NCBI GenBank assembly: GCA_963708295.1
Contig: CAVPSJ010000005.1
Coordinates: 96,001-160,000 of the forward strand
Reading direction: 5' to 3'
Length of the DNA stretch: 64,000 bases
Source of the DNA: an uncultured delta proteobacterium
Lineage (GTDB): Bacteria; Desulfobacterota; BSN033; UBA1163
Below are positions 4,161 through 59,888 of this stretch, piece after piece. The notes under the pieces are model-generated. The model was not told where the DNA came from, ran no database searches, and saw only the letters and a list, made by a program, of their open reading frames with translations. Position 1 is the first letter of the stretch, and every line of letters starts with the position of its first letter. The position numbers were made by a program, and so were the translations under genes.

Positions 4161-5096
4161 TCAAGATAATTCGTTTTCAGCGCCTCCGAGTAACTCCATG
4201 CTCTCCTGTTCGTCGTCATCCTCTTGTTGCGCCTGCGTTCTTTGCAGAACCACCTGCATGGCCTTGTAGTAGTCTCGTTGGACCTTGAGGTTGGCTACGC
4301 GGCAGTAGCGCTGCGTGGTGGTAATCTGGCCATGCCCCAGGAGGTCCTGGATAGTCGCAAGGTCAGCATCGGCATTAAGAAGCTGTGTGGCCATGGTGTG
4401 GCGAAGACGATGACATGAGACGTTGAGTCCACTTTGTCGCCCATAGTATTCGATCCTCTTCTGAATGCCTCGGACCGATATCGGTTTGCCTCTCATCGGT
4501 CCCTTCTGCACCAGAAACAATCCTCTGGCTTTCGAGGATCGTTTCGCCAGATACACCGAAAGAGCGGATTGGGCATCTTCACTCATGTAGACGACCCGAT
4601 CCTTAGCCCCTTTTCCATGGAAGACAAAGATCTGTCTTCTCCCGTACTCTACCGCATCAACCGTCAGCTCAGCCACCTCCTGGACCCGAAGGCCGCAGCG
4701 GAGCATCAACATGAACATGGCCCGGTCTCTCAGATCCGTGATGCCATCAAAGAGGCCCCTGACCTGGTCATCCTTCAGGTGCCGGGGCAGTGGCTTGGGC
4801 AGACGGAGCGAGATCCGGGTGACAGGGTTGATGATCGATCTGCCTTCCTCATTTGTGAGATAGTCGAAGAACAGACGGATCGTTTGCAGGTAGCACGTGA
4901 TCGTCTTGGGTGTTCGTCGCTTTCGGAGGAGATGATCGACATAGGCTCCGATCTCTGTACGAGTCACATCAGGGAGAGGCACGGTAAGCCATCTGATGAA
5001 CTGATCGAGGATGTTGACATAGCTTTTGACCGTGTGGGCTGAGTAGTTTTTTCTCTTCAAGGCTCTCCGGTACCCGATCAGCTCAGTAGGTTCCAT
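4161..5096 (-). CDS. Tyrosine recombinase (XerC/D-like), second gene of the pair
   Basis: Catalytic motifs GLRVQE, GKGAKDR, HRLRH, LGH, TQRY. Confidence 0.92.
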   Translation of the reverse strand: MEPTELIGYRRALKRKNYSAHTVKSYVNILDQFIRWLTVPLPDVTRTEIGAYVDHLLRKRRTPKTITCYLQTIRLFFDYLTNEEGRSIINPVTRISLRLPKPLPRHLKDDQVRGLFDGITDLRDRAMFMLMLRCGLRVQEVAELTVDAVEYGRRQIFVFHGKGAKDRVVYMSEDAQSALSVYLAKRSSKARGLFLVQKGPMRGKPISVRGIQKRIEYYGRQSGLNVSCHRLRHTMATQLLNADADLATIQDLLGHGQITTTQRYCRVANLKVQRDYYKAMQVVLQRTQAQQEDDDEQESMELLGGAENELS

Positions 5097-6096
5097 CGAT
5101 CCCTCCTTTCTCGATAATGGCCATGGCCCGGAAGTACTCTTGTTCGCGGGTGGTGTCAGTGAGCCGGGCGTATCGGCGGGTTACCTCGATGTCCTGGTGA
5201 CCCAGTAACTGCTGGAGACATTCCAGGCGCATCCCCGCGTTGAGAAGCTCGGAGGCAAACGTGTGACGCAGACAATGGACCGTGTAGCCCTTCTGATTGA
5301 GGCCTGCTTTGTTGAGATATTTTACGAAAAGGCCTCTGCCGGTACTGTAACAGAGATGCCCATTGCTCTGGCCGTAAAAGACGAATTCCTTGTTCTTGTC
5401 CCTTCGCCTCAGCCAAAGCTTGATGGCAAACAGCGCATCATCACTCAGATACACCACCCTCCCCATGCTGTTCTTCTCTCCCTCGTACAGGTCAACCTTT
5501 CTACCTTTGATGTCCAGATCGTTTAACCTCAGTCCCAAGGCCTCGCCGATTCGTATCCCTGTCCGTAAAAGGAGAAGAAATAGGGCCCGGTCCCGGATGT
5601 CGTCCATCACACCCAGAAGTTTTCTCACATCGGAGGGGTTCATGGCCCGAGGTAGGGTCTCTGGCAGCTTCAGCTTGATGCCCCGCTTAAGAACGGACCC
5701 AGGGATGATATCTTGCTCCATCAGAAAATGCACAAATGCAATGATGCAAGCCACCCTCGTCCGCACCGTGGAGATTCGTAATCCCCGATCCTGCTCCTGC
5801 TCGATGAAGCCTTCCAGGTCCCTCCGTTCGAGTTTCTCGATTTCTCTCTTGCCTAACTTCCCATAAAAGTCCAGGAAGAGCCTGACGGACGTAAAAGAAC
5901 TGGCGAGGGTCTTCGGCTTGTGATTCAGGCGCCGCTTGTGGCGCATGTAGCACTCGAACTGTTCCTTGGCGGGAATCTCCAGGCAAGAGAGCTTCTGGAG
6001 GATGCGGTCGATTGGGGTGAGTGAAAGAAGCTGTTCACATACTACTTCATTTCCACTTTTGACGGACTCATTGGTGATCGGCTGTCCCTGGGTCAT
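5083..6096 (-). CDS. Tyrosine recombinase (XerC/D-like), first gene of the pair
   Basis: Catalytic motifs GIRIGE, GEKNSMGR, HCLRH, LGH, TRRY. Confidence 0.92.
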   Translation of the reverse strand: MTQGQPITNESVKSGNEVVCEQLLSLTPIDRILQKLSCLEIPAKEQFECYMRHKRRLNHKPKTLASSFTSVRLFLDFYGKLGKREIEKLERRDLEGFIEQEQDRGLRISTVRTRVACIIAFVHFLMEQDIIPGSVLKRGIKLKLPETLPRAMNPSDVRKLLGVMDDIRDRALFLLLLRTGIRIGEALGLRLNDLDIKGRKVDLYEGEKNSMGRVVYLSDDALFAIKLWLRRRDKNKEFVFYGQSNGHLCYSTGRGLFVKYLNKAGLNQKGYTVHCLRHTFASELLNAGMRLECLQQLLGHQDIEVTRRYARLTDTTREQEYFRAMAIIEKGGIDGTY

Positions 6097-36441: not shown

Positions 36442-36589
36442 TGCCGGAGTGTTGGAATGATGGAGTAATGGAGTGATGGACAAAAGAAACCGGAAAAATA
36501 ATTGAATTTTTCTTCCCAACTAAATACGGTACTCCAATACTCCAGTACTCCAATACTCCGGTATTCCGATAATCCAATCATTGACGAAG

Positions 36590-38280
36590 ATGAAAAAAAC
36601 CGGTTCTCAAATCATTGTTGAGTGTTTAAAAAAAGAAGGGGTGGATATTGTTTTCAATTACCCCGGCGGCGCCGTCCTTCCGCTCTTCGATGAGTTTCAA
36701 GGCGCCCCGTTCCGGCAGGTCCTGGTCCGCCACGAGCAGGCTGCGGTCCATGCGGCCGACGGGTATGCCAGGGCAACGGGAAAAGTGGGGGTGGTATTGG
36801 TCACCTCCGGACCGGGGGCGACGAACACCGTAACAGGAATTGCCACAGCCTTCATGGACTCTATCCCTATTGTGATCATGACCGGCCAGGTCCCTACTCT
36901 TCTGATCGGAAACGACGCCTTCCAAGAAGCGGATATCATTGGTATTACAAGACCGTGCACCAAACATAACTACCTGGTCAAGGATGTCAAAGATCTGGCA
37001 CGAATCTTGAAACAAGCTTTCTATGTGGCGCGAAGCGGAAGACCCGGACCCGTCCTTGTTGACCTTCCCAAAGACATCCTGGTCGATTCGACAGAATTCA
37101 AGTATCCCGAGAAGGTCTTTATCCGCGGCTATCAGCCTACTTACGAGGGCCACCTCGGCCAGATTCAGAGGGCGATAAAACTGATCTTGAAGTCCCGTAA
37201 GCCTGTTCTCTACGTCGGTGGCGGGATCATTTCTTCAAACGCATCGAAGGAACTCACCCTTTTAGCGGAGAAGCTGGGTATTCCTGTGACCATGACCCTG
37301 ATGGGGTTGGGCAGCATTCCCGGGCAATCATCCGCTCTCGCTGGGCATGCTGGGGATGCATGGGACCTACTGGGCCAACATGGCGGTCATGGAGGCCGAC
37401 CTTCTCATCGCCATCGGGTCTCGATTTGATGACCGGGTCACCGGCAAGATCGAAGCCTTCGCCCCTCAGGCAAAAATCATTCATATCGACATCGATCCCA
37501 CCTCCATCAGCAAAAATGTGAGAGTCGATCTTCCCATCGTCGGGGATTGTAAACACATCGTTTCCAAAATTCTTTCCCTCCTCGAAAAGGAAGAGATCGA
37601 CTCCTTCAAAACAGGAATGGGAAAATGGCATCATCAGATCGATAAATTCAAAGCCATCCATAGCATGAATTACGACCAGAAGGGAATGATCAAGCCCCAG
37701 TACGTGATCGAGTCCATTTATGAGCTGACCAAGGGGGAGGCGATCATCTCCACCGAGGTGGGACAAAACCAGATGTGGACGGCTCAGTATTTCCCGTTCG
37801 TCAAGCCGAGGACGCTGCTCACTTCAGGGGGGCTTGGGAACAATGGGCTACGGATTTCCAGCGGCCATGGGCGCGCAGGCGGCCTTCCCGAACAAGCTGG
37901 TGATTGATATTTCAGGCGATGGAAGTTTTCAGATGAACTCTCAGGAACTGGCGACCATCGTCCAGTACCGTCTGCCGGTCAAAGTGGTCATCCTGAACAA
38001 CGGCTACCTTGGAATGATCAGACAATGGCAGGAGTTCTTCTACGGGAAACGATACGCCTCCTCTTCTCTGGAAGGGTTTTCTCCGGACTTCGTCAAATTG
38101 GCAGAGGCTTACGGAGCGGTGGGTTTGAGAACGAACAAGCCCGAGGAGGTGGTCCCTCTCCTGAAGAAGGCCTTCTCCATCCCCGAGCCTGTCATCATCG
38201 ATTTTGAGGTCGATCCGGAAGAGAATGTCTATCCGATGGTGCCTGCGGGAGAAGCGCTGAATCAGATGAGACTGATATAA
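36590..38280 (+). CDS. ilvB: Acetolactate synthase large subunit (two frameshifts)
   Basis: [35 protein letters not shown]...NN across three ORFs. Confidence 0.93.
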
Positions 38281-40557: not shown

Positions 40558-40633
40558 TCCTCGGTAGCTCAATCGGCAGAGCGGGTGGCTGTTAACCACT
40601 AGGTTGCAGGTTCGAGTCCTGCCCGGGGAGCCA
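40558..40633 (+). tRNA. tRNA-Asn (GTT)
   Basis: 76-nt cloverleaf; acceptor TCCTCGG/CCGGGGA; anticodon GTT at 40591-40593; GGTTCGAGTCC T-arm; encoded CCA. Confidence 0.97.
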
Positions 40634-40873
40634 GATTAAAAAAGGGGGCCCGGTTATGGTCCCCTTTTTTTAATCTGATTCTTGGTCCAGGGAGAACCTT
40701 TGTGAGCTTGCCCTGAGTGAAACGAAGGGAGTCCTGCCCGGGATTTTTGATTTTCTTCTGATTCTTGGCTCAGGCGAGAACCTTTGTGAGCTTGCCCTCC
40801 TTCACCTTGCTCTGGACAAGCTCCCTTTGCGAGGGAAGTCCTGCCTCTCGTGAGTTTTTTCTCTGGAGGTCTC

Positions 40874-41098
40874 ATGGACAACTGGTGGGTCTACATCGTT
40901 GAGAAAAAGACAGGGCTATATGTTGGTATCACAACCGATTTGGAAAACAGAATGAGGCAACACGGACAGCGGATCCCCTTGTACTATGAAGGGCCTGTTT
41001 CAAAAAGTGACGCGCTCAAGCGAGAGAGAACGCTCAAAGGTTGGAGTAGACGGAAGAAACTCGAGCTGATTGCCACCGCCTTCACAAATGGCAGGTGA
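40874..41098 (+). CDS. Small GIY-YIG nuclease (UPF0213/YhbQ-like)
   Basis: WVYIV...LYVGITTDLENRMRQH, ALKRERTLKGWSRRKK. Confidence 0.85.
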   Translation: MDNWWVYIVEKKTGLYVGITTDLENRMRQHGQRIPLYYEGPVSKSDALKRERTLKGWSRRKKLELIATAFTNGR

Positions 41099-41136
41099 GT
41101 AGTTTCGACCCTAGTGACCGATTTATCCTGAGCTTG

Positions 41137-41856: not shown

Positions 41857-42031
41857 AGCAGTCACCTCAATTGTTAACGTACATTAAAACGTACGCAATG
41901 TCAAGCGTTTTCTGGCTGGCGCAGAATCCCAACCTTTCAGTTTGACCCTAATTTCCCGTCTGCACCAACAGATTCCGGTCATTCTTCTGAAGTGGAGGAA
42001 GTTTCCCTCATGAATAGGTGTCAGGTCTACA

Positions 42032-42797
42032 CTATTCACTTAATATTCTCTTGAGCTTATCAACCTTCTCTGATAGCTTCGCATCCCCTTTTAATCTCTC
42101 TTCGAGCCTTCGCGTATTCTGGCTCACCGCAGAAGGGCCGATCCCTCCGAAATGCCTTCCAATCTCGCCTAAGGACTCCCCGCTCAGACGATGGGAGAGA
42201 TACAGGGCAACCCTTCTCGATTCAGCTGCTTCATTTCCCAATAGACTCTCTGCTTCTTTCCGTATAGACGACAATTCAGGCCACTTGGAAACCTGCCGTA
42301 ATGAAGGGATGTCCCGATGATGAGCCCTTTTCCCAACGCAGTTCTCTCTCACCCAATCGACAAATTCTTCAGATCCTAATATCGCCGAACTGACCACCTG
42401 TTCCAGCGGATCTTTTGTCGCTCTTCCGCTAACCTCCCCTACGAACTTCCGATATCCCTTACGTGCCCTCTTCTCGTTTCTGCTGATTTGACCCAGTATC
42501 CATTCGGTCTTTACCCAATGCCGCCCTTTTCTGTCCGCCGCATAGTCCATATAGCTGCTCCAAGGGTACAATCGAGGGTCCTTCACCCTATGAGCCCTCA
42601 CAGAATTAAGATGGATGTATCGCGATAACTCCATCGCATACTGATCCTTATCCACCAGGATCGCTCGATATCTGCCCTGAAACAGATGGCCTGCTCTCCC
42701 CGTCTTCGCATTGAAATAGTTGGTATAGCCGGTATTTAGGTGATGCAAGATCTGGCGGAGATTCCCCCTTGGAGTCTCCAGAAGTAGATGGTAGTGG
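42032..42797 (-). pseudogene. 5'-truncated Y1 HUH (RAYT-type) transposase copy
   Basis: Nearly identical to 53287-54228 from HYHLL onward; similarity ends abruptly at 42797. Confidence 0.85.
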
Positions 42798-43094
42798 CAT
42801 TGACGAGAGGCCCCAGGAAAATGATAGTAGTAAATAAGAGAGTTAGCTGGCTCATGCTCTCTGAAAATAGGATTCGTTTAAAGAGCTCTTACCAACCTTC
42901 CAACTTGACTTAAAAATTAAGTCAGAAGTGACACCCTTGCTCGGAGGTTAGTGACTCAATACCCAATGAACCCGACAACCCAATAGACCCAATAACCCAA
43001 CAAACCCAATGAACTCAATAACTCAATAACTAATTAATTGGGCCAACTTTTTTATGGATGACTATGGAGATTAGTATTCAAAAACTCGGCTTGT

Positions 43095-53286: not shown

Positions 53287-54228
53287 CTATTCACTCAATA
53301 TTCTCTTCAGCTGATTAACCTTCTCTGATAGCTTCGCATTCTCTTTTAATCTCTCTTCGAGCCTTCGCGTATTCTGACTCACCGCAGAAGGGCCGATCCC
53401 CCCGAAATGCCTTCCAATCTCGCCTAAGGACTCCCCGCTCAGACGATGGGAGAGATACAGGGCAACCCTTCTCGAATCTTCTGCTCTCCTTCCAAATAGA
53501 CTCTCTGCTTCTTTCCGTATAGACGACAATTCAGGCCATTTCGAAAGCTGCCGCAATGAAGGGATGTCTCGATGATAGGCCCTTTTTCCAACGCAGTTCT
53601 CTCTCACCCAATCGACAAATTCTTCAGATCCTAATATCGCCGAGCTGACCACCTGCTCTAGCAGATCTTTTGTCGCTCTTCCGCTAACCTCCCCTACGAA
53701 CTTCCGATACCCCTTACGTGCCCTCTTCTCGTTTCTGCTGATTTGACCCAGTATCCATTCGGTCTTTACCCAATCCCGCCCTTTTCTGTCCGCCGCATAG
53801 TCCATATAACTGCTCCAAGGGTACAATCGAGGGTCCTTCACCATATGAGCCCTCACAGGATTAAGATGGATGTATCGCGATAACTCCATCGCATAGTGAT
53901 CCTTATCCACGAGGATCGCCCGATACCTGCCCTGAAAGAGATGGCCTGCTCTCCCTGTCTTGACATTGAAATAGTTGGTATAACCCGTGTTTAGGTGATG
54001 CAATATCTGGCGGAGATTCCCCCTTGGGGTCTCCAGAAGGAGATGGTAATGGTTAGACATCAAACAAAAGCAGTGGATTTGCGCTCCATATCTCTCTGTT
54101 GCGGACTCCAAATAACCGATCATTCTTTCGTAATTCTTCTGAGTTAGAAATATATCTCTCCTTTCATTCCCACGGGAGGTAACATGATAGAAAGCTCCCG
54201 GATATTCTATCCTCAAAGGCCGTCCCAT
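53287..54228 (-). CDS. Y1 HUH transposase (RAYT/TnpA-REP-like) with a C-terminal DnaA-like HTH
   Basis: YHVTSRGN, MSNHYHLL (HUH), GHLFQGRY, YIHLNPVRA, YPWSSY; C-terminal SLGEIGRHFGG. Confidence 0.9.
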   Translation of the reverse strand: MGRPLRIEYPGAFYHVTSRGNERRDIFLTQKNYERMIGYLESATERYGAQIHCFCLMSNHYHLLLETPRGNLRQILHHLNTGYTNYFNVKTGRAGHLFQGRYRAILVDKDHYAMELSRYIHLNPVRAHMVKDPRLYPWSSYMDYAADRKGRDWVKTEWILGQISRNEKRARKGYRKFVGEVSGRATKDLLEQVVSSAILGSEEFVDWVRENCVGKRAYHRDIPSLRQLSKWPELSSIRKEAESLFGRRAEDSRRVALYLSHRLSGESLGEIGRHFGGIGPSAVSQNTRRLEERLKENAKLSEKVNQLKRILSE

Positions 54229-54288
54229 AACCCAGGACTACCATGATTTAAGATGGCTTGTCAAGAGTGTAGAGTGTAGACCTGACAC

Positions 54289-55026
54289 CTATGTCTTTTG
54301 CCCAACAGTGATCTGTTCTGACTTAATCACCCGATGCTTTTCGTCCAACAGTACGACATGAAATTCCTCTTGTTTGGCCTCCCTTGCTAACCTAATAAAA
54401 TGTTCCTTGCAATATGTCAGGGCATCAGAGGTGTTTCTGAGTTTGTGGCGAGGCAGTGATTCGGTCGTTCTTTGACTTGCCAACCTCTTACCCAGTTCCA
54501 GACCAGAAATAATTTGACAATAAGCAGTTTCACCAATGGCTCTACTAATCTGTTTCAGTTCCCCTCTCGCTTGGAGAGACAGTTTTTCAAGGTCATTTCC
54601 AAATAATGTGGCCAGTCTTTCACCGGCCTGCATTGCAGATTCACCTTGAAGACCAGATCGAATCAAGATAGCTAGAAGTTCCGAGATTTTGAGTTCTGAC
54701 GGCCCCAATCGGAGAAGACGTTCTCTGGGGCGATCTATTGATGGGGATCGCTTGATTGTGACAGTAAAAACGCGCTTATCAATCCACCTGCCTGCATTGA
54801 ACTCATCTCTCTTGGCCGACCAAGCATATTGCGATTTTGTTTTTGACCCTGAGTTGGTTAAATAACCATCCTTTACCAATTCGGAAATTATTCTGCCTAT
54901 AAATTGAGGTTTCTCGTTCTTTATCGCTTTGTAGATATCGGGCTTATTGAACGAATCACTTTCCATCAGGACGTTGACTATTGATTGATATCCTGCAAAG
55001 CGTTTTACGTCCGGCTGGGTTTTCAT
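54289..55026 (-). pseudogene. RadC/JAB-family protein with an N-terminal extension, 3'-truncated
   Basis: RPRERL..G, ELLAILIRSG, QEEFHVVLLD; ends before the JAB HNHPS motif, with its stop inside the transposase end repeat. Confidence 0.75.
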
Positions 55027-55326
55027 TTTCTATCCGCGAAAGATTCTTTCATTGTGGAACGCGATAAATTCAGACCCTGGGCGCAATCGTTTATCTGTAC
55101 TGCATTAAGGGGACGTTGGTTCTGAAACAACTTACGCCCGAAGACCGACCTCGAACTCTTGCCCCTATTTTGCCCTTCAGAAATCTCATCCACCCTCGCC
55201 CTTCATTGAAGCATAGCGTCTGTGTCCCCCTCAACTGACTGGCAACGAGGGGGACGTAGGTTCTAAAACAACTTACGCCTGGAGGCCTTGGTTGAATGTC
55301 CCTAATCATTTTTCTTTTTACAAACC

Positions 55327-55506
55327 TCATCCACCCCCACCCTTCAACTGTTCCGGAGTCCTCTCTCCCAGCCAAAGCTTGCAGACGTTCTTCCAACCGA
55401 TGCGACGCCATTTCTTAAAGGCAGCTTTCAACTCGTTCAGATCCTTGGCTTCCTGAAGATCTTGCTGGGCGGCTTTCAAATCTTCAAGAGATGCAATCGC
55501 TGGCAT
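55327..55506 (-). CDS. Unannotated 59-aa protein, copy A
   Basis: MPAIASLEDLKAAQQDLQEAKDLNELKAAFKKWRRIGWKNVCKLWLGERTPEQLKGGGG; GAGG RBS; paralog at 57017-57196. Confidence 0.75.
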   Translation of the reverse strand: MPAIASLEDLKAAQQDLQEAKDLNELKAAFKKWRRIGWKNVCKLWLGERTPEQLKGGGG

Positions 55507-55846
55507 GTCTCAACCTCAAACCAAGGCTGGGCCCAGGGGGACGTTGTTGAATTCTGTCACTTATTTTTCCTTTCAGAAATCTCATCCGCCATTCACCTTT
55601 CATTTAAAGATGGTGTCCCCCTCAACTCACTGGGGCCGAAGACGGAGTGTCGCGTGTCAGCAAACAAGCATAGAGCAAAGAGCATAGAGCATAGGGTAAA
55701 AATCTTTTAATCGTTAAACGTACTACGAAAGAACGTGTCCCTGCCTACCGGCCCCGGTCCCGACCGAGGGCGGGGCAGGCAGGCGTGATTCGTATCCGTG
55801 GCTAAATCATCTGAGACCTTACCAGAAAAAATGCCTATTCGCGTTT

Positions 55847-56285
55847 TTATAAAAGCTCCGGATGGTTTGAGCGAAGCCACTTCTCCACTTCGTCCCTTAG
55901 ATTTTTAGCCAGGGCAAACATCTCCTTTGCCTCTTGCTCGGATACCGCTCCCGCTCGTTCGTAGCTCCTAATGTTTCTCTTCTTTCGGAATTTATCTAAT
56001 TGAGGGATTAGAGCTTGGATCTGCTTTGATCGTGTAAGCAAGCGACTGGATCACCCGGTAGTGATGGGCGTCCCTCGCAGCCCGATAACCGGCAGCAGCC
56101 AGAGCTGCCGTTGCCGCTTGCAAGGCAGCGTTGTAGGCTATATTCAGTTGCCAGTCCGGACTGAGATGAGGCGTTCGGCATTGGGCCAGGTCACGATCCG
56201 CCATGCTTAGCAAGTCAGAAATCTCCTGGCGACTCGTTTGGTGCTCAATGAGCCAGCGGCTTTTTAGCCAGTCTTGCAAGCTCAC
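55847..56285 (-). CDS. HEPN-like protein (frameshift near 56010)
   Basis: IAYNAALQAA..AL..GYR..HH, then RKKRNIRSYE; overlaps the nucleotidyltransferase gene. Confidence 0.7.
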
Positions 56286-56924
56286 GTTTGTCTCCGATGA
56301 GGAATAACATGGGTTCTCTTAAGACAGTGTTGAGGAAATGGTGCCCTGCTGACACTTTTGATCGGAACTCCGCAGGAGGATAGACGGTTGGATTGATCTC
56401 CCGGTTAATGGTGCTCTGGGCCTCGGTGAAGGGCTGACACAATCTCGGCAAATGTCGCCTCACCCACGACCAAGAGGTCTACGTCGCTCCCTCTGTGTTC
56501 CTCGCTGCGAGCGATGGATCCATAGATAGCGGCAATGCGAATGCGATCGGCTAAAGGCGCCAGGGCAGCCTGTAACGATGCCTGCGATGCCAACCGTTTT
56601 CATCACCAGGGCCTTGAGTTCTGCAAATACAGGACACTGAGGATTTGCCTGGTAATAAACCTGCCGACCACGAACGATGCGCTGGATAATCCCGGCGTCT
56701 GAAAGCTGCTTTAATTCTCTCTGCACTGCACCCAGCCCGACTCCGGCGGCACGAACGATTTGGCGCAGATAAAAAGCATCGTCGACATGGCTGTAGAGTA
56801 AAGAGAGAACAGCCCGGCGGGTCTTACCAAACAGGGTCTTAGATAGGTTATCGCTGTCAGGCAATGTACTCATTGTGGGTACGATTGTACCTCTTTTAGG
56901 TACGATTTTCAAGGTTTTCCTCAT
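56245..56924 (-). CDS. HTH plus minimal nucleotidyltransferase (MNT) antitoxin-like protein, frameshifted
   Basis: LFGKTRRAVL/QRELKQL HTH; YGSIAR...SDVDLLVVG; REINPTVY. Confidence 0.8.
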
Positions 56925-57016
56925 CCACCCTTGCCGTTATTAAAAGCGTGGCCGTGACTCGTGCCACCTCTGGGCTGCCCTTGCATTTAAAAAAGAATGT
57001 GTCCAGGCACTCTTCA

Positions 57017-57196
57017 CTAATTCCCTTCACCCTTCAACTGTTCTGGCGTGCGTTCCTGTAACCACAGCTTGCAGATGTTTTTCCAACCGATGCGACGATA
57101 CTTTTTGAAAACTGCCTTCAACTCGTTCAGGTCCTTGGCTTCGTGAAGGTCCTTCTGGGCTGATTTCAAATCTTCAGGAGATGCAATCGCTGGCAT
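57017..57196 (-). CDS. Unannotated 59-aa protein, copy B
   Basis: MPAIASPEDLKSAQKDLHEAKDLNELKAVFKKYRRIGWKNICKLWLQERTPEQLKGEGN; 49/59 identical to copy A. Confidence 0.75.
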   Translation of the reverse strand: MPAIASPEDLKSAQKDLHEAKDLNELKAVFKKYRRIGWKNICKLWLQERTPEQLKGEGN

Positions 57197-57446
57197 GTTT
57201 TCTCAACCTCTCGCATAGCGCAGAGCGCATAGCGCATAGCGTAATTAAAATCGTGTCCCCCTCAACTGACTGGGGCCGAAGACGGAGTGTCCGTGGTAAA
57301 TAGATAACCCTGTCGAACTAAAAATATTATTACCCTCTTTCTTACCCTTTCTTAGAGGTCATACCCTTTCTTCGCCATGGGGCGCCAGCCGCAACTGGGT
57401 ATCAGGTCTACACTCTACACTACCGCCCACCTTTCAATTGAGTCTT

Positions 57447-58610
57447 TTATGAAAGGGCAGATAACAGCTTTTCTATCGACAATGCCTTTACGCCGGGGCG
57501 AAGCGCCGAGATGGACTCCTTTCCCTTCGAAGGCCGATAGATAAGAAATCGATCGACCTTATAATTGGATACCACTTTTGACAGACGACTAAGAGACTCC
57601 GCTGTCTCAGGCCAAACGGTCCGGGAGGCTTTGGCCTCAAGGAGGATAAGTTTATGGTCCCCCCCGGGAACCAAAAAATCCACCTCAAGGCCTTGCTGAT
57701 CCCTAAAATAATAGAGCTCTCTTGCTCTTCCCGAATTCATTTGTCGTTTGATGATTTCCGACGCAACGAATCCTTCAAAAATAGCCCCCAGAAACGTAGA
57801 GCGGTTCAACATCTTTTCAGACTCGATTCCCAGTAAGTGGCAAACAAGACCTGAATCGAAAAAATAGAGTTTTGGCGATTTGATAAGCCGTTTCCCAAAA
57901 TTTTCGTAGAAGGGAGGTACAAGAATGATTTGAGAGGTAATTTCAAGAATGTTCAACCATTCGGAAATCGTTGGTACCGTCACCCCGAGAGGAGCAGCTA
58001 AATCCGTGCGATTCAGGATTTGTCCACAGCGGCTCGCTAAGAGCGATAGAAAACGGCGAAATGTTGCCAGATCCCGTATGGAGCTGATGGCCCGAACATC
58101 TCTCTCCAAATAGGTCTGGATATATGACCGAAACCACGTCTGAGAGACCGAAGGATGAGCGAGGACTTCTGGGAATCCTCCACTCAAGAGAGAAACCTTG
58201 GGGGTCTCCAAAACAGAAAGTGTCAACAGATGAAACACAGCGGCTCGACCTGCCATCGATTCAGTGGCCCCTTTCATGAAGGGAGACTCCTGGGACCCCG
58301 TGAGCAACCATTGGCCCTTCTTATTCGGGAATCGGTCAATCTGAGTTCTTACATAGCTAAGGATTTCTGGAACATTCTGAATTTCGTCAAGAATGGCAGG
58401 AGGGCGAATTTCCTCAATAAAGGAATGAGGGTCTGCACGGAGGCGTGCAATGATGTCCGGATCTTCCAGCAAATAATACTGGGCTTTGGGGAAGAGCTTT
58501 CTGAGGAGGGTAGTTTTCCCTGCTCGTCGGGGACCTGTGAGAATCAGCCCCGAAAAATGTTTCGTAGCTAAAAGGAGTTCTGATTCAATCTGTCGGGGGA
58601 TGTATTTCAT
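57447..58610 (-). CDS. AAA_14 ATPase with a DUF4143 / PD-(D/E)xK-like C-terminus
   Basis: GPRRAGKT, LDEIQ, TGS, KSPKLYFFDSGL, EVDFL...EAK. Confidence 0.9.
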   Translation of the reverse strand: MKYIPRQIESELLLATKHFSGLILTGPRRAGKTTLLRKLFPKAQYYLLEDPDIIARLRADPHSFIEEIRPPAILDEIQNVPEILSYVRTQIDRFPNKKGQWLLTGSQESPFMKGATESMAGRAAVFHLLTLSVLETPKVSLLSGGFPEVLAHPSVSQTWFRSYIQTYLERDVRAISSIRDLATFRRFLSLLASRCGQILNRTDLAAPLGVTVPTISEWLNILEITSQIILVPPFYENFGKRLIKSPKLYFFDSGLVCHLLGIESEKMLNRSTFLGAIFEGFVASEIIKRQMNSGRARELYYFRDQQGLEVDFLVPGGDHKLILLEAKASRTVWPETAESLSRLSKVVSNYKVDRFLIYRPSKGKESISALRPGVKALSIEKLLSALS

Positions 58611-58813
58611 CTTGAGTATTTTAAACCGTTACTTTAAATGACTCAAACGAAAAGATAACCGGTTAAATCAACTCAGGAAGGCCTCTGGGACGTCGTTCAA
58701 CTGCAAAGGTGTCAGTCTTGAAATGTGAATTAGTATTCTAATCGCCTTCACCTTTCAATTGTTCTGGGATCCTTTCCCGCATTCTTTATTGTAAAGCGTA
58801 AGTCGTCGGTCGC

Positions 58814-58949
58814 AAAAAAAAAGCCCATTCTTTTTGGAGAATAGGCTGTACGCAATCCAGGATTTTTACGGAAAAGATGAGACAACTCCCACTCCTCTGT
58901 AAATCCCGCTAAGTTGCCTCACTATATCAGAAAAGCAACGCAATGACAA
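58814..58949 (-). ncRNA. Candidate small RNA or attenuator (promoter plus terminator, no ORF)
   Basis: TTGTCA-17-TATAGT (58949-58921); GCCTATTCT/AGAATGGGC stem plus U9 about 100 nt downstream. Confidence 0.4.
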
Positions 58950-59417
58950 TCACTCAACTTTTATTTTTCCGTCCTCCTGAACCCTCTGTTTAGCTTTTGA
59001 CTTGACACGGCTCAGCCTCCTGGTTGCTATGAGATATTCATCTTTTAAGGGTTTTCAACTCAGTTTGCTCGTTATTCATTTGTCACCCCCTTCTTTCTTG
59101 ACCCACCCGAACCCTCCGCATTGACTGCAAACTTTGGTTTCTTCATGCCCATCGGATGACTTACCCGTGCCCCTACAATATGGGCAACAGGTCATCTTGT
59201 ATTTCTCCGGATTAAAGCGACCGTAATGACCGATTTATCCTGAGCTTGTCGAAGGAGTCCTGCCCGGGGAGCCAGCAAACAAAAGGCCTTGCTTTATCCT
59301 GTAATTTTCTGTTCACTAATTATAGAAGAAGATGTATACTATAATTTCGAATGGATGATGGGATAGATTTTCCCTGTTCACCTTAGAACCCACATCTTAA
59401 ATCAGAAGGCCAAGATT

Positions 59418-59888
59418 ATGAAGGCAGTGAAGCATTTCGTCATGGGTGCTCTTCCCGTCCTCTGCGCCGCTCTTGTCGTTTTGGGTCATGTGGACGTGTA
59501 CGCAAATGATATGCTCGTTCCGGGCGAAGAGTTGAAAAGAGGAGACTCTCTCAAATCTGCCAACGGTCAATATAGACTCATCTTGCAACGGGATGGAAAT
59601 CTTGTTCTTTACGGTCCAAGAGACCGGCTGGTATGGGCAACGAATACGCAAGGTATCCCGGTCGTGAGATGCGTCATGCAGCCGGACGGCAACCTGGTGC
59701 TCTATATCCCCAACGACCAGTCGGTCTGGAATTCAGGTACACAGCAACGCCCAGGATCATTTTTATGGCTCCAGAATAACGGAAACTTGGTCATTTACCA
59801 GCCTGTTTGGGGTGTGGCCAATGAACAACAGCATCGCGGGGGAGATCACCGTGACCGAAGGGACCACGACAGGGAAGAAGACAAATAG
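59418..59888 (+). CDS. Secreted bulb-type (B) lectin domain protein
   Basis: Signal peptide; QRDGNLVLY, QPDGNLVLY and QNNGNLVIY (QxDxNxVxY-type motifs). Confidence 0.88.
   Translation: MKAVKHFVMGALPVLCAALVVLGHVDVYANDMLVPGEELKRGDSLKSANGQYRLILQRDGNLVLYGPRDRLVWATNTQGIPVVRCVMQPDGNLVLYIPNDQSVWNSGTQQRPGSFLWLQNNGNLVIYQPVWGVANEQQHRGGDHRDRRDHDREEDK

Follow-up and report, generated by a model that had tools for sequence, protein, structure and literature searches.

The window analysed here, 64,000 nt from an uncultured delta proteobacterium (contig CAVPSJ010000005.1, positions 96,001 to 160,000), carries on its minus strand an array in which the gene of a 59-residue microprotein recurs between defence-like genes, its last codons passing directly into the tip of a Y1 transposon (Table 1). 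A sequence-only reading of the window had described the order remnant > AAA-DUF4143 ATPase > copy B > MNT-HEPN > copy A > RadC-like, which was confirmed. Copies A and B share 49 of 59 residues, with 34 identical codons, the 15 synonymous and 10 non-synonymous differences counted earlier, and a sixteenth synonymous difference in the stop codon; GAGG precedes the ATG of both, and the proposed coding constraint is borne out by an NG86 dN/dS of 0.10. The C-terminal remnant at 58738-58782, MRERIPEQLKGEGD followed by a stop codon, is likewise real, and short 3'-end remnants are present at about 55185-55205, 55581-55605 and 56919-56932, the last being the weakest with 14 nt only. The first two of these consist of 10-20 nt of gene end and then a transposon-end segment common to many other loci, and an extra remnant at 57398-57440 had been overlooked.

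Table 1. Features of the array and of the adjoining TIRYT element, in window coordinates and in minus-strand order.
Feature	Position	Strand	Basis or remark
Sigma-70 promoter TTGTCA-17-TG-TATAGT, head of array	58921..58949	-	10/12 match, extended -10
Intrinsic-terminator-like hairpin and T run, recurring between cargo genes	58813..58847	-	motif scan
Microprotein C-terminal remnant	58738..58782	-	sequence and protein-profile comparison
TIRYT end segments joined to remnant (degenerate A-type 58708-58717, B-type 58687-58697)	58687..58737	-	identical junction in L023, L024, L056
AAA_14-DUF4143 ATPase, PADLOC candidate PDC-S01	57447..58610	-	Pfam and PADLOC
Gene 3'-end remnant fused to TIRYT A-type end	57398..57440	-	23/24 identical to element end 54266-54289
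Fic gene tail, last ~16 codons, remainder missing	57330..57386	-	matches Fic aa 338-353 of L009
Spacer repeat	57245..57295 (also 55604-55656, 55222-55242)	-	common to L008, L009, L021, L023, L043
Microprotein copy B	57017..57196	-	59 aa
Gene-end remnant (weak, 14 nt), upstream border of MNT-HEPN segment	56919..56932	-	segment comparison
HTH-nucleotidyltransferase, PDC-M05A, frameshift-split	56245..56873	-	Pfam and PADLOC
HEPN-like partner, PDC-M05B, two ORFs	55847..56285	-	PADLOC gives candidate name only
Gene-end remnant and B-type TIRYT end	55538..55605	-	matches in 13 other loci
Microprotein copy A	55327..55506	-	59 aa
Copy A tail, terminating in B-type TIRYT end	55251..55326	-	end-motif scan
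Gene-end remnant and B-type TIRYT end, second copy of copy A tail	55110..55205	-	segment comparison
RadC/UPF0758 gene, cut by TIRYT left end	54289..55026	-	Pfam and breakpoint comparison
Left terminal inverted repeat of TIRYT	54266..54289	-	inverted-repeat comparison
Intact TIRYT/group 1 RAYT transposase gene	53287..54228	-	Y1_Tnp E 6.9e-12 and Bac_DnaA_C-like HTH

A scan of a collection with one genome per species confirmed 154 relatives of the microprotein, the best 80 of which were kept as 79 loci; with L002 left out as a duplicate of L001 and the window added, the comparison set held 49 short-form and 30 long-form loci, each examined with 10-kb flanks around the gene. The long form has 63 residues and is found mostly in Spirochaetota, and the short form of 59 residues mostly in Desulfobacterota-type deltaproteobacteria, to which, going by its closest relatives, the window probably belongs; array-type loci were seen in anaerobic bacteria. 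In reversed sequence, used as a chance control, no DNA-profile match scored 8 or more, and a single protein-profile match was obtained, at 10.2.

The repeated unit is larger than the gene. It comprises a sigma-70 promoter, a terminator hairpin, short spacer repeats, the 59-aa gene and a TIRYT tip, measures a few hundred bases and contains the outer 24-90 nt of a TIRYT (HUH Y1) end. In the 49 short-form loci the promoter motif was found 26 times on the array strand and never on the opposite one, and the hairpin, present in 22 of these loci, was co-oriented in 46 cases against 0. Both motifs had been derived from short-form loci, so their absence from all 30 long-form loci is partly expected, which is not true of the polarity. 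The window leader is predicted to fold well (z -3.9), yet a structured leader RNA was rejected, as only the promoter and terminator are conserved; the hairpin alignment (91.5% of cells paired) contains no two-sided change, and the window leader had no Rfam match.

An intact transposase gene from a transposon of the kind whose tips occur here lies 1 kb from the array. Judged from its domain content and inverted repeats, the element at 53287-54228 is a TIRYT (group 1 RAYT, subclass 2.1.2), the C-terminal DnaA-like helix-turn-helix (HTH) domain of its gene matching Bac_DnaA_C with an E value of 7.1e-05, under the gathering cutoff. Its left end is inverted relative to the right end (42014-42040) of a sister copy, and its own right end is truncated; the TIRYTs of L023 and L035 have both ends. 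The sister copy (42014-42814, minus strand), about 93% identical to it, keeps its right end intact but lacks the 5' part. The gene-linked tips are identical in type to the ends of the intact TIRYTs in the window, L023 and L035, and the transposase of 53287-54228 is a candidate source of activity.

The linkage of these tips to the gene is specific. A TIRYT end within 130 nt after the gene end was found at 23 of 65 short-form gene ends with one mismatch tolerated and at 35 of 65 with two, and at none in reverse orientation, compared with 1/144 cargo-gene ends, 1/235 other gene ends, 0/30 long-form ends and 26/1,960 random windows. The junctions are of at least five types, the spacing being constant within each, and strict matches come from 14 genomes by hand count. 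The sequence-only reading had proposed that the 3' end of the gene marks insertion points; the joint was correctly located, and the cause appears to be the fused TIRYT end, which that reading had not seen. In addition, TIRYT ends that face back to the gene from the opposite strand downstream of the cargo were noted in L008 (13603), L035 (15239), L036 (11514), L015 (10423) and L043 (17380), some cargo thus standing between two outward-pointing ends.

The two forms have different neighbourhoods. Defence or toxin-antitoxin (TA) cargo lies within 2.5 kb of the gene in 41 of 49 short-form and 5 of 30 long-form loci, the cargo list having been picked from domain and PADLOC scans after the locus comparisons had been viewed. 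This cargo includes type I and III restriction-modification (RM) systems, Hma-like triplets, ORF6N, Fic, DUF433/DUF5615, PIN, AbiE, WYL, Schlafen, DUF1016 and RadC. Long-form neighbours are mostly ordinary genes, with a DEDDh exonuclease motif downstream in 8/30. More than one copy or remnant occurs in 16 of the 49 short-form loci, compared with a second partial copy in 2/30 long-form loci by protein profile and 1/30 by the short-form DNA profile. All 115 DNA-profile matches scoring at least 12 lie on one strand, 136 of 139 cargo genes near short-form genes share the orientation of the microprotein gene, and an identical head leads into different cargo at different loci, all of which supports the earlier proposal of an accordion- or cassette-like locus. 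The opposite pattern, a single-copy gene in a fixed neighbourhood, is found in part, and in the 63-aa sister clade only. The first downstream gene belongs to 26 different families among the 38 of 48 copies that have one. Large genes stand directly after the head in L011 (from 10303), L023 (10273-15348), L054 (from 10249) and L017 (from 10348), and are candidate new defence genes; the first 400 residues of those in L011, L023 and L054 had no Pfam or PADLOC match.

Beyond a common tip the sequence differs nearly every time. Four of 41 gene-linked tips are followed by the interior of a gene that has an intact version elsewhere (SNF2 at aa 1010, RecD-like at aa 337, UvrD-like at aa 1042 and Fic at aa 338), and homology there begins some 8-12 nt beyond the repeat, just as it does at the radC gene broken off at 54289 by the end of the intact element. 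At the Fic tail of the window the distance from transposon end to joint is likewise about 11 nt. The window array combines segments that also occur, in differing order, in L012, L013, L021, L041, L043, L056 and L009. L015 and L016 agree completely in the upstream flank and the opening part of the gene and diverge in its 3' half, and L030 and L031 diverge at the gene end. Along the gene, identity falls from 98% through 88% to 81% in four pairs with a common upstream flank, and from 82% to 76% over all pairs. Copies from the same genome are on average 81% identical and those from different genomes 78%, and among 37 copies only the two of L040 are closest to one from their own genome. The mosaic pattern suggests homologous exchange through the gene; a PHI-type test gave this no support (p 0.58 and 0.80, sites saturated).

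Observed are the make-up and orientation of the head, the purifying selection on its gene, the changing cargo, and joints located a little beyond the transposon end. On these observations, the reading that we favour, with about an even chance of being right, combines transposase-made joints at orphan ends with homologous crossovers in the conserved gene. The TIRYT transposase, acting in trans on orphan ends, would attach the head to new DNA downstream, either through one-ended insertion or through a deletion next to the end. Crossovers between the ~80%-identical gene copies, the longest common sequence of the segments, would then exchange, duplicate or delete head and cargo within and between genomes, and so yield integrase-free accordion arrays of defence genes. 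Several points weigh against this combination. Both steps are inferred from sequence; the PHI-type test was not significant, and the four mosaic pairs come from no more than five loci, which fall into two groups. Only 3/49 loci have an intact TIRYT within 10 kb. TIRYT ends also occur away from the gene, many on the opposite strand, and are common scars in these genomes, and eight short-form loci have no listed cargo nearby. The loci are related, so the Fisher P values overstate independence, and the motifs and cargo list were defined after the data were viewed.

The most serious competitor, somewhat less probable in our judgement, is an ordinary defence island in which the gene heads a strong-promoter operon, TIRYTs insert and decay to inert ends, and routine transfer and recombination do the rest. 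The frequency of unlinked TIRYT ends, the missing formal recombination signal and the position of the window array within a variable block beside tRNA-Asn all fit it, and a few ancestral junctions spread by descent could yield the end counts. However, the ends accompany the microprotein's last codons rather than cargo genes, with a single polarity and in at least five forms, and the sequence past a common end differs almost always and four times enters the middle of a gene. It is improbable that the hairpin, gene and end form a non-autonomous, TIRYT-mobilised mini-element which inserts between defence genes with the microprotein as passenger. The hairpin and the transposon end are indeed both frequent breakpoints, 11 genomes contribute two or three separate loci each, and short-form copies also occur in bins of other phyla; yet no left-type inverted repeat was found within 1.7 kb upstream of the gene, 5' borders vary, co-orientation with cargo is strict, and the near-equal identity of copies within and between genomes is unlike recent transposition.

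Two further explanations have little in their favour. A role of the microprotein as antidote to the cargo, which the sequence-only reading had offered, or as its chaperone or cognate partner would account for the tight linkage to toxic cargo and for a gene end only a few bases from the ORF6N start in L032 and L039. This is very unlikely because the downstream genes fall into 26 unrelated families; besides, cargo TA pairs have their own partner gene, many cargo genes sit after broken copies, and the long form has no such cargo. A type II antitoxin identity was rejected for want of a fixed cognate toxin neighbour. The head promoter, the co-oriented defence cargo and the repeated hairpin resemble a cassette array of integron type (CALIN), in which the repeats would be attC sites, but this explanation is already largely refuted and hardly credible: a simple core-site scan found no attC-like site in the window array, tblastn with two window recombinases gave no tyrosine recombinase in the 10-kb flanks of 79 loci at moderate sensitivity, and the joints are TIRYT ends. 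The same core-site scan returned three intergenic sites in the 49 loci, 3.6-7 kb from the gene; two attC-like sites in L033 (4652-4764 and 6321-6380, 3.6-5.3 kb upstream of the short-form gene on an Aminicenantes chromosome) are a separate cassette array.

The likeliest role of the microprotein, a tentative assignment, is regulation: as a small helical protein acting on its own promoter-terminator leader, it may set the read-through into the cargo, without being cargo-specific. The position of the gene beside that leader agrees with this. Its isoelectric point varies widely, no family or fold search matched it to a DNA- or RNA-binding protein, and in the long form both the leader and a common upstream motif are missing, all of which speak against a regulator. 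More doubtful still is a dedicated integrase-free cassette system, in which the TIRYT-capped promoter-attenuator-microprotein head would serve repeatedly as an attachment site, cargo would be captured there by a domesticated group 1 RAYT, and the microprotein would control read-through or assist the transposase. If this is true, group 1 RAYTs have a function for the host, and the system is a defence-gene platform of a new kind. The array may mark a route to building strings of defence genes without an integrase. The locus supplies defined DNA substrates, namely orphan ends with known joints, and the microprotein, whose 59-aa length falls below common ORF cutoffs, is a practical marker for defence-gene discovery, several downstream genes being without Pfam or PADLOC match.

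Comparable architectures are known in part. In complex class 1 integrons with ISCR1, one-ended HUH mobilisation and homologous recombination at a duplicated conserved segment produce tandem cargo strings, ISCR being a Y2 rolling-circle enzyme that moves along with its cargo. In this functional analogue an integron is present; the loci studied here have none, and most of them lack the Y1 enzyme. The Pfam scan, which covered 164 neighbour genes, a subset of all genes, found no Y2 transposase of ISCR type among these. In defence islands and RM operons with controller (C) proteins, a small gene also heads a defence operon; here there is no HTH_3 match, the gene is repeated many times with a transposon end, and the cargo extends beyond RM. 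Pfam and NCBIfam detected no HTH_3-type domain of the kind that marks a C protein or XRE regulator.

The available text on TIRYT/TIRtron elements (RAYT group 1, TnpA-Y1 subclass 2.1.2) describes a Y1 transposase with a DnaA-like C-terminal HTH and terminal inverted repeats of the type GGGG[AT][CG]A[CG], free copies of which form repeat families, and leaves the mechanism unestablished (PMC6006769, PMC3733652, PMC5581495). Group 1 RAYTs are given there as having the highest duplication rate among RAYTs proper and as not REP-associated (PMC5581495). Transposase, HTH and inverted repeats agree with the element studied here; the difference is that here orphan ends continue the final codons of a single microprotein gene and point towards defence cargo that changes from locus to locus, arrays that the same text does not describe. 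The nearest published parallel is the procA-TnpA(REP) association of marine picocyanobacteria, in which C-terminal transposase fragments lie at a fixed distance from a small multicopy gene; its expansion was attributed to the transposase, with a post-submission note by the authors that there is no strong evidence for or against causation (10.1101/2020.03.09.984088). Both cases share the transposase subclass and a transposon part at a fixed distance from a small multicopy gene. In the procA case the genes face each other, the small gene is diversified and no inverted repeats were found, whereas in the present arrays it is the adjacent cargo that varies and the small gene that is conserved, and the ends consist of co-oriented inverted repeats. 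Sedentary chromosomal integrons, presented as defence banks in the available text of 10.1101/2024.07.02.601686, likewise hold co-oriented arrays of small interchangeable defence genes; no IntI or attC was found in the present arrays, whose cargo includes multi-gene RM and Hma-like operons. A literature search that included the microprotein motifs, with subscription journals mostly outside its coverage, found no description of the family or the architecture. The protein family is new, the defence hotspot and the TIRYT are of known kinds, and there is a real chance that together they form a distinct cassette system.

The microprotein represents a large family without name, family match or fold match. 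A single-sequence search returned 1,196 clusters, a profile search 2,246, and a 50%-representative library 168 at E <= 0.001; database relatives are labelled "hypothetical protein", and the conserved core reads RxxG(W/Y)KN-CK-E-TPE-LKG. The structure prediction and Foldseek search proposed earlier gave four-helix models for the 59-aa and 63-aa forms (pLDDT 79 and 87) and no fold match for either (best Z 4.3 and 3.7, Foldseek E > 2). The 59-aa model aligned with three-helix DNA-binding domains (Z 3.9-4.1, rmsd 2.6-3.1, 48-56 residues aligned), tied with unrelated rows and not repeated with the 63-aa model. NCBIfam and PHROGs scans were uninformative, the ESM Atlas held only matches under 0.9, and plasmid and phage collections had no match to either form or to the leader. 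Several candidate identities were rejected: Phage_int_SAM_6, a sub-threshold Pfam match of copy B (E 0.076); LAS1, a 34-residue PDB sequence match (E 4e-4) unsupported by any fold search and taken as chance; longer fused forms, as the 13 viewed among 29 matches resemble miscalled starts or read-throughs and include no informative fusion; and the PANGU paper, whose available text concerns YejK proteins of about 330 aa.

In a 69-sequence tree, midpoint-rooted only and based on few columns, the 39 short-form rows form one branch (support 100/99, length 1.1), and the short form is the derived form. Intact short-form copies have a median dN/dS of 0.07 over the 317 of 666 pairs with pS < 0.7, none above 1. 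Broken copies account for 41/78 of the short form and 2/32 of the long form, 30 of the 32 long-form copies being intact. Those in L037, L044, L056 and L071 and in protein matches such as P0172, P0387 and P0393 are interrupted after about codon 15 and after codon 41-42 by common short inserts, and these recurrent positions suggest insertion hotspots inside the gene. P0211 (125 aa) contains two long-form domains in tandem, a hint that the microprotein may act as a dimer.

Among the window cargo, the nucleotidyltransferase and its partner, which we take to be a HEPN protein, are each broken into two ORFs. These frameshifts may be sequencing errors because housekeeping-type genes elsewhere in the window are likewise split, for example at 36581-38280. 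Just upstream of the array promoter, a 39-aa ORF with two CxxCxGxG motifs (59076-59195, minus strand) lies in a segment with 87% DNA identity to L021 5903-6065, inside the cargo string of L021. A tandem pair of tyrosine-recombinase-like genes at 4161-6096 (minus strand) is unrelated to the array.

The array belongs to an 18-kb block that also contains the two TIRYT copies, a group II intron remnant, TA remnants and mreB, and in which general inspection of the window noticed no integrase. The block is bracketed by a 31-nt direct repeat (41106-41136 and 59218-59248, plus strand), and the 3' end of tRNA-Asn is repeated 18.6 kb downstream (40558-40633, 40729-40742 and 59255-59275, plus strand). 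Integration linked to tRNA genes was rejected as a general rule, as one is present in 5/79 loci and none within 1 kb of the gene. A small ORF between the tRNA 3'-end repeats (about 40864-41100, plus strand) looks GIY-YIG-like by eye, and a protein with a B-lectin (mannose-binding) domain and a likely signal peptide (59418-59888, plus strand) adjoins the block boundary.

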